From: an uncultured bacterium
Lineage (GTDB): Bacteria > Methylomirabilota > Methylomirabilia > Methylomirabilales > 2-02-FULL-66-22
Direction: 5' to 3'
NCBI GenBank assembly: GCA_964576535.1
Contig: CAZNWB010000008.1
Span: 1-60,995 of the forward strand
Length of the DNA stretch: 60,995 nucleotides
A model generated the notes under the pieces. That model saw only the letters and a program-made list of their open reading frames with translations. It was not told the origin of the DNA and made no database searches. Both the position numbers and the translations under genes were made by a program. Positions 88 through 60,995 of this stretch are shown piece after piece (position 1 is the stretch's first letter; the number at the start of each line of letters is the position of its first letter).

Positions 88-118
88 TCCTCTGCGTGCT
101 TTGCGTCCTTTGCGGTTC
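88..118. repeat. Period-9 tandem repeat (CTCTGCGTG/CTTTGCGTC/CTTTGCGGT)
   Basis: Three degenerate 9-mers; CTCTGCGTGCTTTGCG recurs as its reverse complement near 50050. Confidence 0.6.
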
Positions 119-155
119 AAATGCAATGTCAGGGTTCAGTCCTCTTTGTGCCTTG

Positions 156-199
156 AAAAAACGGGCCCTCCCCGGATCGCGCGGTGGGGAGGGCCTGTT
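156..199 (-). terminator. Intrinsic terminator of the cytochrome bc operon
   Basis: GGCCCTCCCC/GGGGAGGGCC stem followed by a T6 run on the minus strand, about 35 bp past the stop at 235. Confidence 0.75.
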
Positions 200-234
200 G
201 TGCTCGGTGAGATTGTATGCCGCTCTCGTGGCCG

Positions 235-930
235 TTACTTCTTGGCGAACTCGGCAGTGAGCTTAGCCTCTTCCTTGGCCTTGACGCTGACCTCCTTCAC
301 CTGCTTGCCCAGCGTCTCGTGCCAGATCTCAACCTTGTAGCTGCCCGGCGGGACGTCCTTGATGGTGAAGTTGCCCTTCTCATCTGTCACCCCCACAAAG
401 GGGTGGTCTGTCGCAACGATCCAGCCCGTCATCCACCCGTGGGCGTCGCATACGGCCTTGATGATCTCGGGCTTGGTGAACTTCTCGGTCAGGACCTTCT
501 TGAACTTGGGCTGGGCCTTGTTGAAAGACGGGTTCGCCGTGCTTTGGGTGTGGATGTTGTGCAGGATCCCATCGCTGTTCAGGATGTCCAACTGCCCCGT
601 CGTGGGCACCACCACCACGCGCGGCGTGTACTTGCAGCCCTTCTGGTCCAGCTCGACTTTCTGGGAAGCGAACTTGCCGCCCTTGGCGCCCACCACGGTC
701 ACCACGACGTTGGCCAAGCCCTTGTCCGATCCCACGACGAGCGACTCATCGTAGTGCTCGACCTTTCCGCAAACTTCCTTGTCCTTGGTGATATCCAGCA
801 TCTTCTTGGCCGGCGGGCTCCCCGCATAGGTGATCCGCCCGCTGAGCGTTCCCCCCTCCTGGGCCAGGGCCACGGTGGCTCCACTCAAGACCAGGCCAAC
901 GATCGCCACTACCACCCATACCACTTTCAT
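235..930 (-). CDS. Exported carboxypeptidase-regulatory-like/cupredoxin-like protein
   Basis: Signal peptide, LHNIH and CDAHGWM (His...Cys-x2-His-x2-Met) motifs, C-terminal beta-sandwich (GNFTIKDVPPGSY). Confidence 0.7.
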   Translation of the reverse strand: MKVVWVVVAIVGLVLSGATVALAQEGGTLSGRITYAGSPPAKKMLDITKDKEVCGKVEHYDESLVVGSDKGLANVVVTVVGAKGGKFASQKVELDQKGCKYTPRVVVVPTTGQLDILNSDGILHNIHTQSTANPSFNKAQPKFKKVLTEKFTKPEIIKAVCDAHGWMTGWIVATDHPFVGVTDEKGNFTIKDVPPGSYKVEIWHETLGKQVKEVSVKAKEEAKLTAEFAKK

Positions 931-996
931 GCTCGTCTTGCCTCCTGCCCTCTGCGCTCCCTGACCGCCGATCGTCAGGCGCGAGGGCGTCTCTTA

Positions 997-59914: not shown

Positions 59915-59944
59915 TTGACATATCCGACACAGGCATTATAATGC
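59915..59944 (+). promoter_or_regulatory. Consensus sigma70 promoter with palindrome over -10
   Basis: TTGACA-N16-TATAAT; GCATTATAATGC. Confidence 0.8.
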
Positions 59945-59979
59945 TGGCATCATGATTCAAACGAGGAGGGAAATCTCTC

Positions 59980-60240
59980 ATGAAATCCAGAACGATGGTG
60001 TACCTGGAGTCTGAGCAGCTTCAGGCCTTGAGGGGTGAAGCGAAGACACAGGGCATTTCTCTGGCGGAACTTCTACGGCGTCTGGTGCACGCACACCTCG
60101 AGAAGCGCCACAACCTGGCTCCCGCCCCGCCAAGCGCGTTCCTAAGGCTCGTGGGATTGGGCGCCAGCGGGCGGGAGGATATTTCCGAACATCACGATGA
60201 CTACCTAGGCAAGGCTCTCCACGATGAGCATGCTGGTTGA
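59980..60240 (+). CDS. CopG/RHH antitoxin
   Basis: RTMVYL..EQ...L..EA...GISLAELLRR, DISE.HD.YL. Confidence 0.88.
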   Translation: MKSRTMVYLESEQLQALRGEAKTQGISLAELLRRLVHAHLEKRHNLAPAPPSAFLRLVGLGASGREDISEHHDDYLGKALHDEHAG

Positions 60241-60649
60241 TACCGGAGCGTGGTATGCACTCGCCGACACGTCGGACCGCCACCACGAAGAGGCTAAGGC
60301 ATTCTACGCCGAGCACGCTGCGACGACTCGCTTTGTGACCACCGACCTCATCGTCGCCGAAACCTGGTCCCTCCTTCACTCTCACCTTGGGCGGTCGTCT
60401 GCCTTCATTTTCTGGGAAACCCTGAGGGAAACGCGGATCCCAATCTTGACCGTGGAACCCGTTGACCTGGAAGCGGCCTGGCATATCGCCCAGGCCTTCC
60501 CAGACCAGACCTTCAGCTTCGCAGACTGCATGACCTTCACCCTGATGGAGCGGCTGAGAATCTACGATGCGTTCGCCTTCGACGCCCACTTTCTGGTCTA
60601 TCGGTTCGGCCCGGGACGCCAGAGGGCCTTCCGCCGCTTCCCGCGCTAA
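60224..60649 (+). CDS. vapC: VapC PIN-domain toxin
   Basis: LVDTGAWYAL...D.HH, TTDLIVAET, SFADC, AFAFD.HF. Confidence 0.93.
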   Translation: MSMLVDTGAWYALADTSDRHHEEAKAFYAEHAATTRFVTTDLIVAETWSLLHSHLGRSSAFIFWETLRETRIPILTVEPVDLEAAWHIAQAFPDQTFSFADCMTFTLMERLRIYDAFAFDAHFLVYRFGPGRQRAFRRFPR

Positions 60650-60829
60650 CCCCGATCCGAAAAAAGAGCCGAGCGTAGAATCAGCATCCCCCTGCATGCG
60701 AGGCCCCGTGGAGGGGAATACCCATGGCCTCCTATAGGGGGCCTGAGGGCCCCGCTGACCCATCCCTTCTCCGCGTCTCTCTTCGCGTCTCCGCAGGGCA
60801 TTCGGCCTCAGCGGAATTTCGGATCGGGG
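60650..60829. mobile_element. MITE-like element, copy 2 (180 bp)
   Basis: Perfect 13-bp TIR CCCCGATCCGAAA flanked by a CTAA direct repeat. Confidence 0.8.
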
Positions 60830-60995
60830 CTAACAATCACCCGCCCTACCGCATTCGAAAGGCACCTTCGTACGCCTTCGGCCTCCCAGCGTCCCAGCGG
60901 TAGTCATTCCGCATTCCCGCCGGGCCGGATGGCCCTCCCTCTGGGGCGGATGCCCCTCCGGGGCGGAGCCTGGGCCGGAGGCCGCACTTCGCATT

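Follow-up and report, generated by a model that had tools for sequence, protein, structure and literature searches.

The 60,995-nt stretch of DNA analysed in this work (hereafter the window) is the entire contig C8 of an assembly that we label G000 (3.72 Mb in 204 contigs, 65% G+C, 96.5% complete), and many of its intergenic spacers carry short hairpins whose arms are tandem arrays of 7- to 9-nt words. According to Pfam, the genes around these hairpins encode a split cytochrome b with a Rieske protein, components of type II secretion and pilus systems, and ccmA-H-like and arn-like proteins. These annotations confirm the gene names given in an earlier sequence-only reading of this DNA, where the repeats were said to interrupt ccm, qcr, gsp and arn operons, and hairpins are indeed located inside these clusters. 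At the arn-like cluster, one inverted pair of word arrays encloses a gene of family PF05635. The spacers between all called genes, the last 5 kb and positions 15100-16300 of the window were inspected directly (Table 1), and the comparisons covered 21 genomes of the same genus, G000 included, all designated by G-numbers. For the window's CcmF protein, the best matches among named relatives reached only about 50% identity (Binatia, Rokubacteria and "delta proteobacterium" metagenome-assembled genomes). An Rfam scan of the window at gathering scores returned two tRNAs only, and no known RNA family on any hairpin.

As shown by Tandem Repeats Finder (TRF), the window contains 100 repeat rows, mostly of period 7, 8 or 9, which correspond to 66 non-redundant arrays of period 7, 8, 9, 14 or 16. 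The sequence-only reading had reported more than 25 sites with three to five degenerate units, which is true of the arrays, and every site that it cited does carry three to five units. Its description of a left arm, a spacer and a reverse-complement right arm applies to about 18 pairs recognised by eye in the window (10 of them also called under a stricter automatic rule), but not every array is paired, and between about 53.8 and 61 kb most are same-strand "orphan" arms. Genome-wide, TRF rows of periods 7, 8 and 9 amounted to 204, 183 and 170 per Mb, against 41, 46 and 52 in an order-3 Markov simulation, and periods 10, 11 and 13 were on par with that simulation. For the entire assembly, the DNA between genes (723 kb, delimited by a crude GC3 rule, i.e. 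by G+C at third codon positions, which called 3170 genes and 80% of the sequence as coding) was then compared with three order-2 Markov replicates: 414 arrays of period 7 were observed (14-22 in the replicates), 345 of period 8 (18-27), 130 of period 9 (10-20), 102 of period 14 (0-4) and 94 of period 16 (1-2). The density, which the same reading had proposed to set against shuffled controls, is therefore far above composition-matched random sequence, about 20-fold for periods 7 and 8 and less than 3-fold for periods 10 and 11. Per kb, arrays of periods 7 and 8 are about nine times as dense in intergenic as in coding DNA, with almost no enrichment for period 9. Reverse-complement matches within 150 nt at a score of at least 10 were found for 563 of 1148 intergenic arrays, compared with 17 in a reversed-sequence control and 15 in a complement-only control.

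Merging of paired arrays gave 374 elements in G000, with a median span of 80 nt, of which 305 are taken in by 21 word families defined by a core 5-mer and 69 fit none. The largest families are GTTCG (60 elements), GGCAA (53), GACAA (38), TCAGC (34), GAATG (21), CAGAT (13) and TCGAA (13), the others being smaller. Members of a family have termini and loop motifs in common, as in CAATG...CATTG or GCGTTCG...CGAACGC, and polarity is fixed per family: the GGCAA arm precedes the TTGCC arm in 53 elements and follows it in none, and the corresponding ratios are 58:2 for GTTCG-first, 37:1 for GACAA-first and 34:0 for TCAGC-first. Because a palindrome is identical on both strands, these counts describe the polarity of the arms and not their orientation to transcription. 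The absence of a single consensus, by which the repeats had been set apart from REP and BIME sequences, does not survive this classification, since at least 21 word families exist and each has its consensus. A word consists of a 5-6-nt core and 1-3 nearly random free positions and is strictly phased, so that successive GTTCG cores are spaced by exactly 8 nt in 153 of 164 cases. The median number of words per arm is 3.7 for 7-mers, 3.8 for 8-mers and 2.9 for 9-mers, and the arm measures 25-30 nt whatever the period. The arms are complementary almost solely through their cores; free positions form Watson-Crick pairs between arms in 45% of cases, against 38% in a shifted-word control (n = 1468).

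Tandem words might also arise in place, as local by-products of replication slippage and hairpin-templated repair, with no copying between sites. In many bacteria, heptamers are the most frequent class of long simple repeat, and an origin by polymerase slippage has been suggested (Mrazek 2007, as summarised in PMC4679880). Both the 69 paired elements outside the families and the variable word number of orthologous hairpins described below are compatible with such an origin. Slippage alone, however, would produce perfect repeats rather than cores with randomised free positions, and it would not generate families of 20-60 copies with a common word, polarity, termini and loop motifs, the occurrence of one family at neighbouring junctions, or a gene-plus-arms unit that recurs with unrelated flanks. 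This explanation is therefore considered quite unlikely.

The gene of the gene-plus-arms unit belongs to PF05635. The window protein matches this family with an E-value of 6.4e-11 and 42.9 bits (cut-off 33.8), and its closest solved chain is 2rld_A (E 5e-13), one of five chains in an entry named "uncharacterized protein"; in the available parts of two articles the family is likened to Avd and called uncharacterised (PMC10053308, PMC11270868). Six PF05635 matches are present in G000, five of them between inverted word arrays, with a different word each, and the sixth with an ordinary terminator hairpin. The genus holds 117 matches in 20 of the 21 genomes; in G017, five of eight matches contain one in-frame TGA. 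For a test of the flanks across the genus, 80 regions with strong near-full-length matches (weaker or shorter ones omitted) and the six G000 loci yielded 88 genes, 85 of them with usable flanks. A reverse-complement match between the flanks with a score of at least 14 was obtained for 68 of the 85 genes and for 1 of 85 in a reversed-sequence control, and at a score of 12 the numbers were 76 and 3. The arms around these genes are nearly all arrays of 7- or 8-nt words, and the words are very diverse. Where relative orientation could be called, the PF05635 gene points in the direction of the upstream host gene in 56 of 63 cases and in that of the downstream one in 49 of 60.

The PF05635 protein and the word of its arms diverge together. 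This was evaluated with 64 PF05635 genes having arms of score at least 14 and at least 90 profile positions, using only pairs without flank similarity by blastn and by blastp of translated fragments. The share of pairs with the same word climbs with protein identity, from 34 of 1459 pairs below 30% identity to 13 of 326 at 30-40%, 15 of 117 at 40-50%, 11 of 42 at 50-60%, 12 of 17 at 60-70%, 7 of 7 at 70-80% and 2 of 2 above 80%. As an example, G020 contains a copy whose protein shares 83% identity with the window PF05635 protein; its neighbours are different, but its AATGCGG arms and additional TCGTAC end module are those of the window element, and blastn aligns the two over 349 nt at 75% nucleotide identity. 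Since protein and word agree at unrelated flanks, gene and arms behave as one unit.

Homologous junctions are filled in some species of the genus and tight in others. The junction that holds the PF05635 gene in the window, between arnC-like and arnA-like genes, was examined in 13 same-genus relatives: two (G020 and G001) contain a PF05635 gene with other words, of GCTGGGA and TCGTAC type, two (G016 and G008) contain gene-less word arrays only, eight contain nothing except plain spacers of about 60-110 nt, and one (G012) has a different neighbour, another gene lying upstream. An inserted gene between arms at a homologous junction, the comparison called for by the sequence-only reading, is thus found in the window and in 2 of 13 relatives. 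Remnants of AATGCGG words remain at the end of the glycosyltransferase gene in G000, G016, G008 and G020, and this junction appears to have received insertions repeatedly, one nested in another. In the window, the upstream ArnC-like glycosyltransferase open reading frame (ORF) ends within the perfect CATTCCG array at 48571-48603, which encodes its final residues and stop codon; the element has supplied the 3' end of that gene.

The short hairpins vary in the same way. The order of the type II secretion system (T2SS) F, E and PilM genes is kept in 15 of 15 same-genus relatives examined, and the YGACAAC hairpin is found in 6 of 15 at the F/E junction and in 6 of 15 at the E/PilM junction, the remaining nine of the latter junctions measuring 11-29 nt. 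Where YGACAAC hairpins are present, the cores are kept and the number of words (about 3 to 6) and the free positions vary between orthologues. One hairpin family persists at a given junction across species that share no more than 75-83% protein identity. Related strains were compared through public assembled DNA and RNA contigs aligned to 20 kb of the window; uncovered parts carry no meaning in these alignments, and RNA ends, depth ranking and strand are unreadable from contigs. A related DNA contig (run X14) lacks 16203-16259, with a joint from 16202 to 16260 at a depth of 23.9 and 117 letters on the shorter side; 19068-19160 is skipped or replaced in two related-strain contigs, and the loop at 17213-17254 is replaced in one DNA run and one RNA run. 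Contig joints with short sides of 21-34 letters (4665 to 5078, 7658 to 17804, and the "opposite strands" joints 4932/17212 and 15298/15696) were set aside, as they probably reflect shared words or other organisms. Word repertoires also change between genomes: three tandem copies of GGTTCGA occur 93 times in G002, 26 times in G015 and not at all in G000 and seven other genomes, and three copies of CATTCCG occur 106 times in G000, in 18 of the 20 other genomes of the genus and not in G007 and G009. Beyond the genus, CATTCCG triplets were found in one other family of the order and in none of the remaining five families sampled.

Filled and empty junctions recall a cassette system, as the sequence-only reading had suggested, in which case the arms would be attC-like and the short hairpins empty sites or scars. 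The part of that proposal that stands is that arms bracket a gene and that junctions are filled, gene-less or empty, and the row of toxin-antitoxin modules with same-strand word modules at 53-61 kb superficially resembles a cassette array. Nevertheless, PF05635 is the sole enclosed gene family identified among long-range inverted pairs, since most of the 48 long-range inverted partners merely bracket ordinary, unannotated genes between two neighbouring hairpins; no inverted arms enclose the toxin-antitoxin modules; word diversity greatly exceeds that of attC cores; and no integron integrase (TIGR02249) was found above cut-off in G000, the best match being a fragment at a contig end with 112 bits against 265. 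An integron-like system is thus barely credible. The short hairpins, with loops specific to each family, are elements in their own right rather than scars.

Regarding genomic placement, elements were found in 272 of 2201 co-directional gaps (12.4%), 53 of 387 convergent gaps (13.7%) and 28 of 381 divergent gaps (7.3%); for co-directional gaps of 60-250 nt, the occupied share is 21-27%. Elements begin at a median of 17.5 nt past the stop codon, and neighbouring junctions carry hairpins of the same family. In two tRNA clusters of G000, L112 (C31:4900-5900) and L113 (C7:17600-18400), whose tRNA genes were recognised by eye, each inter-tRNA spacer contains a word-armed hairpin (GATTGNN, AATGCGG and GACAAC words). 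Such positions, within operons and between tRNAs, would suit host regulatory devices, that is, phased cores bound by a host DNA- or RNA-binding protein, or signals for mRNA processing or stability, a possibility that is compatible with a selfish origin. Conserved cores beside 1-3 nearly random free positions, and the persistence of one family at one junction across species with 75-83% identical proteins, are in agreement with this explanation, and protein binding is what was proposed for similar sites in Geobacter, according to the portion of that article available (PMC2700814). In addition, a pilin-like gene whose start is overlapped by a hairpin lies in the bin with by far the highest RNA-contig depth in the 20 kb (about 540 in both RNA runs, contig depth being a poor measure of expression), and RNA contigs of two runs both end at 9993, just before the hairpin at 10030, which is a weak hint. 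On the other hand, at least 21 words would require many readers or a very tolerant one, presence per junction is patchy (9 of 15 relatives have no hairpin), word repertoires differ wholesale between species, sense/antisense asymmetry is absent, and no functional class is prominent among the neighbouring genes in the window. As an explanation of the elements, host devices are therefore rather unlikely.

High-copy extragenic palindromes are also produced by REP (repetitive extragenic palindromic) and BIME (bacterial interspersed mosaic element) sequences, which are associated with RAYT (REP-associated tyrosine transposase) genes, form several families per genome, lie in 3' parts of transcription units and favour co-directional and convergent gaps. 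In this respect they resemble the elements described here. Each family in G000 has a consensus, but its arms are phased word arrays, a structure that REPs are not known to have. Mobilization by Y1 transposases of RAYT or IS200 type was considered because G000 holds 13 Y1_Tnp (PF01797) matches, most of them in ORFs of 323-338 aa. Ten of the 13 have informative flanks, and these bear their own, different inverted ends, with words of GGGGACG or GGGACGTTGTTGAC type; the flanks of the other three (C51, C110 and the partial copy C79:2178) are uninformative. None of the 13 lies between hairpin-family word arrays, and two merely have a hairpin nearby. Since the Y1 genes carry their own ends, this explanation was rejected as very improbable. 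The Y1 elements (on C1, C33, C22, C122, C20, C79, C40, C199, C53 and others) constitute a separate multi-copy element of loosely similar design: where the flanks are informative, each inverted end consists of a 9-12-nt word, with GGGGACG or GGGACGTTGTTGAC at its end, repeated directly 2-3 times.

Taken together, our findings suggest that the hairpins probably, though by no means certainly, represent a multi-family class of selfish palindromes resembling the intervening sequences (IVS) of rRNA, located outside rRNA and with many gene-less copies. The full-length form carries a gene for a PF05635 protein (the Avd-like, four-helix-bundle S23p/IVS protein) between its arms, in the sense of the host operon, and the short form, of about 80 nt with a loop only, is far commoner. 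In this proposal, the elements would spread by copying into new spacers, with rapid turnover. The host may tolerate them because the arms would fold in the transcript and be cut out or through, by analogy with RNase III on rRNA IVS. The cores would be kept because something reads them, and the most economical, if speculative, candidate for this reader is the element's own PF05635 protein, a pentamer in solved relatives. A broader hypothesis, which we put forward tentatively and regard as doubtful, is that PF05635 proteins may be sequence-specific readers of phased 7-8-nt words, with a ring of about five subunits per arm of about four to five words and with each protein lineage co-diversified with its word; protein and arms would then form a widespread selfish IVS-like class riding host transcripts, whose gene-less copies would account for heptamer and octamer arrays long left unexplained in many phyla, namely the cyanobacterial STRR (short tandemly repeated repetitive) sequences, the Xanthomonas GGGAATC arrays and the Geobacter "global regulator sites".

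Several observations weigh against this interpretation. The joint divergence of protein and word could reflect specific recognition or plain linkage, which the sequence comparisons do not separate. In the 96.5% complete G000 assembly, no PF05635 gene was found with a word of GTTCG, GACAA or TCAGC, counted here as the three largest families, and the one-contig genome G015 has 26 triple GGTTCGA arrays, yet its three PF05635 genes carry other words; word abundance is thus not simply tied to a PF05635 gene with that word, a comparison confounded by kinship and incomplete assemblies. The loops of gene-less copies are family-specific, so that simple deletion from the gene-bearing form does not account for these copies. 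The "empty" allele of run X14 retains one word and 3 filler letters, with no clean insertion boundary, and no target-site duplication is evident between filled and empty junctions, the divergence of the compared species being too great to place boundaries exactly. There is no evident copying enzyme, given that the Y1 genes have their own ends and no integron integrase exceeded the cut-off, and we know of no enzymatic activity of PF05635 and no copying mechanism for the elements. In addition, the intergenic counts are blurred by the crude gene calling (GC3 rule, 80% coding).

Free positions pair hardly above the control, so the conserved feature is two opposed rows of phased cores and not a continuous RNA duplex, another point against our proposal. 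The mean predicted RNA folding energy is -41.5 kcal/mol (elements averaging 88 nt), and no strand-specific RNA signature was detected: the sense strand is the more stable one in 126 of 270 elements and the antisense in 144 (Wilcoxon p 0.68), with G-U pairs showing no sense-strand excess (600 of 8348 vs 654 of 8321). Neither stability nor G-U counts showed the sense-strand preference expected of intrinsic terminators or RNA-selected stems (U-tracts were not systematically scored). The strand test thus leaves selection as an mRNA stem unsupported, although a symmetric palindrome inserted either way would show no asymmetry either. The register-slipping mRNA stems postulated in the sequence-only reading agree with the different word numbers of orthologous hairpins; no RNA-strand signature was found, and the arms are complementary mostly via cores.

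Table 1. Word arrays, hairpins and the PF05635 element in the window
Feature	Position	Strand	Context
Unpaired 9-mer array (TCCTTTGCG, 3 copies)	88..114		Contig start; word matches right arm at 50161-50186
Heptamer hairpin (CGAATGN arm, spacer, NCATTCG/TTCGAAA arm)	4899..4991		Between split cytochrome b halves
YGACAAC-family heptamer hairpin with additional right half-arm	8174..8275		Between T2SS F-like and E-like genes
Second YGACAAC-family hairpin	10030..10110		Between T2SS E-like and PilM-like genes
GCGCAAR/YTTGCGC heptamer hairpin	15247..15311		Right arm enters start of pilin-like gene
GCGCATR heptamer hairpin	15694..15767		3' of pilin-like gene
TCAGCNN-family heptamer hairpin	16203..16270		16203-16259 absent from one related-strain DNA contig
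Octamer array (CGGCAACC, 3.8 copies)	17118..17147
CGAATGN heptamer hairpin, small hairpin nested in loop	17170..17305		Loop 17213-17254 replaced in related contigs
GCTGGGAN octamer hairpin	19093..19167		Between periplasmic-binding-protein gene and RtcB; skipped or replaced in two related DNA contigs
GGCAAYNN octamer hairpin (53-member family)	24395..24486		Upstream of CcmH-like gene
9-mer hairpin (TGAGTCNNT / GACTCAATG)	25557..25665		Between CcmF-like and thioredoxin-like ccm genes
GTTCGGNN octamer hairpin (60-member family, termini GCGTTCG...CGAACGC)	29652..29754		Small hairpin in left arm; between CcmA-like and CcmB-like genes
GATTTYG / CGAAATC heptamer hairpin	30531..30598		Upstream of CcmA-like gene
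GTACGANN octamer hairpin	39339..39432		End of GreA-like gene
GTGGTCA heptamer array, 5.4 copies	39474..39523
GTACGANN octamer hairpin	44985..45090		Between convergent arn-like genes
Unpaired GTACGAA octamer array	46076..46100
Gene-containing inverted pair	48066..48603
Composite arm (GTACGANN words, then AATGCGG words)	48066..48127		Downstream of enclosed PF05635 gene, in gene sense
PF05635 gene (23S rRNA intervening-sequence protein, Avd-like)	48179..48466	minus	Between arms; co-oriented with arn-like operon
Partner arms (CATTCCG words)	48525..48603		4.7 perfect copies at 48571-48603
9-mer hairpin (ACCGCAAAG / CCTTTGCGN), long spacer	50046..50190
GTACGCCN octamer hairpin	52812..52924
Partnerless same-strand arrays (TCCCAGCN, then TCCGCAT)	53866..53950	+
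Same-strand array run (AATCCGA, TCCCAGCN, ATTCGAN, CATTCCG, TCGTACNT)	55971..56307	+	Before toxin-antitoxin pair
Same-strand CATTCCG / TCGTACNT / TCCCAGCN arrays	57160..57347	+	Between toxin-antitoxin modules
Arrays including one true GTACGAAT...TCGTACT hairpin (58678-58806)	58600..58868
71-nt module (TCGTACNT words and CATTCCG words), 2.3 tandem copies	59682..59844	+	Composite is that ending the PF05635 element
Same-strand TCGTAC, TCCCAGCG and CATTCCG words	60850..60920	+	Near contig end

Other observations were made on the same DNA. Within 15247-15683, the pilin-like gene (with an N-terminal methylation motif) appears to have a TTG start and a short leader inside the right arm of the GCGCAAR hairpin. 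Small secondary hairpins are nested in the arms or loops of word elements at 29668-29700, 17212-17255 and near 48545-48565, and a recurrent nested-hairpin motif of the GCACCC...GGGTACCC type occurs in several families and in relatives. The nested hairpin at 17212-17255 is swapped for other letters in related contigs. The toxin-antitoxin island at 53200-60700 comprises three PemK/MazF-like toxins, two PIN toxins with MazE/RHH-type partners and two DUF2283 genes, and adjoins an IS1595-family transposase gene at 54140-54913; its modules are parted by unpaired same-strand word arrays, with one arm type piled up. A further, distinct dispersed repeat measures about 180 nt and has complementary ends (CCGATCCGAAA ... 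TTTCGGATCGG); it is present in the window at 41244-41423 and 60649-60828 and elsewhere in G000 at C29:3458-3627, C40:22632-22797 and C28:20113-20293, with at least five near-full copies of 79-91% identity, in addition to fragments. A repeat unlike the word hairpins, with a 17-nt unit (CCGTCAGCAYTWTCCGG-like) in three direct copies, lies at 33833-33889, just outside the start codon of a minus-strand PHP-domain gene (32992-33837). Finally, contig C2 of G000 (98438 bases) has 60.8% G+C, against 65% for the genome, and one period-7/8 array, against 16-89 per 100 kb in other contigs; C2 may represent a foreign island or mis-binned sequence.

Intergenic arrays of heptamers and octamers were noted repeatedly in the articles considered here, which date from 2009 to 2016, with cited work going back to the 1990s, and without an accepted origin or function. 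A similar arm design is known from the foldback transposons of Drosophila, whose inverted terminal arms consist of short tandem repeats and most of whose copies have no gene; these are eukaryotic and much larger, and nothing suggests common descent. A miniature inverted-repeat transposable element (MITE) has terminal inverted repeats with a target-site duplication and derives from an IS that encodes a transposase; in the present elements, the enclosed gene is PF05635 only and not a transposase, and no duplication was evident in the comparison of diverged species. Among bacteria, the STRR and TAACTGA heptamer direct repeats of cyanobacteria and Beggiatoaceae form short intergenic arrays with a patchy distribution, and their function was left unexplained (MacGregor, 2015; PMC4679880). 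As far as the abstract and available text indicate, these differ from the word hairpins in being mostly single direct arrays just upstream of start codons, with one dominant word and one inverted case mentioned in the abstract. In Xanthomonas (GGGAATC) and Nostoc (GGGGA(C/T)T), about four heptamer units are preferred, and the arrays are mostly transcribed, over-represented between co-directional ORFs and rare between divergent ones; convergent inverted pairs of GGGAATC number 70 in Xcc and 75 in Xac (Rehm et al., 2015; PMC4692102). Arrays of about four units, convergent inverted pairs, intergenic location, co-directional bias and few divergent gaps are thus common to both systems. Unlike the elements described here, which have many words, mostly incapable of forming quadruplexes, the Xanthomonas arrays have one G-rich word that was read as a quadruplex former, and the portion of the article available mentions no link to PF05635.

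In Geobacter metallireducens, 24 pairs of four tandem octamers, 21 pairs of three 8/9-mers and 8 pairs of five heptamers were described on opposite strands at variable distance, some of them within operons such as proB-proA, and were named "putative global regulator binding sites" of classes 1-3, with IHF or HU as guessed ligands (Aklujkar et al., 2009; PMC2700814). These sites share with ours the 3-5 tandem units of 7-9 nt, the opposite-strand pairs at a variable short distance and the dozens of copies; they differ in that they were described as protein-binding sites, and the description available mentions neither an enclosed gene nor a link to PF05635 and contains no analysis of turnover. 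In open-access PubMed Central and bioRxiv, no link between dispersed intergenic word hairpins and PF05635 was found.

The closest counterpart of the gene-bearing form is the 23S IVS of Coxiella burnetii, which has a 28-bp terminal stem, an S23p ORF and, before this ORF, 2-3 tandem heptamers whose number is strain-variable, RNase III cutting at the first repeat (Warrier et al., 2016; PMC4990558). The same article, in the portion available, cites a homopentameric Xanthomonas structure of S23p and treats the family as uncharacterised. As in 23S IVS, the terminal inverted repeats of the present elements form a stem around a loop with an optional PF05635 (S23p) ORF in the sense of the host transcript, and, as in Coxiella, tandem words variable in number lie beside the ORF. 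Cutting by RNase III was shown for the Coxiella IVS and is assumed here by analogy. In contrast to 23S IVS, the window copies all lie between protein genes and the elements occupy mRNA and tRNA spacers, both whole arms are phased word arrays, and hundreds of gene-less copies exist in at least 21 word families. No word-armed IVS was found in the 23S genes of G005, G013, G015 and G020, where only 10- and 23-nt extra hairpins occur, in G020; the 23S gene of G000 is unassembled.

For genome annotation, these elements matter because they extend or supply the stop and start codons of their neighbours, break assemblies and mimic regulatory sites. The genus numbers join two puzzles, the word arrays and PF05635, into one hypothesis that can be tested at the bench, by asking whether a PF05635 protein binds its own word and whether the stem is cut in the transcript. 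The repeat design was already published for Geobacter, Xanthomonas and the Coxiella IVS; compared with these systems, the new part of this work is the numerical link to PF05635 and the co-variation of protein and word.

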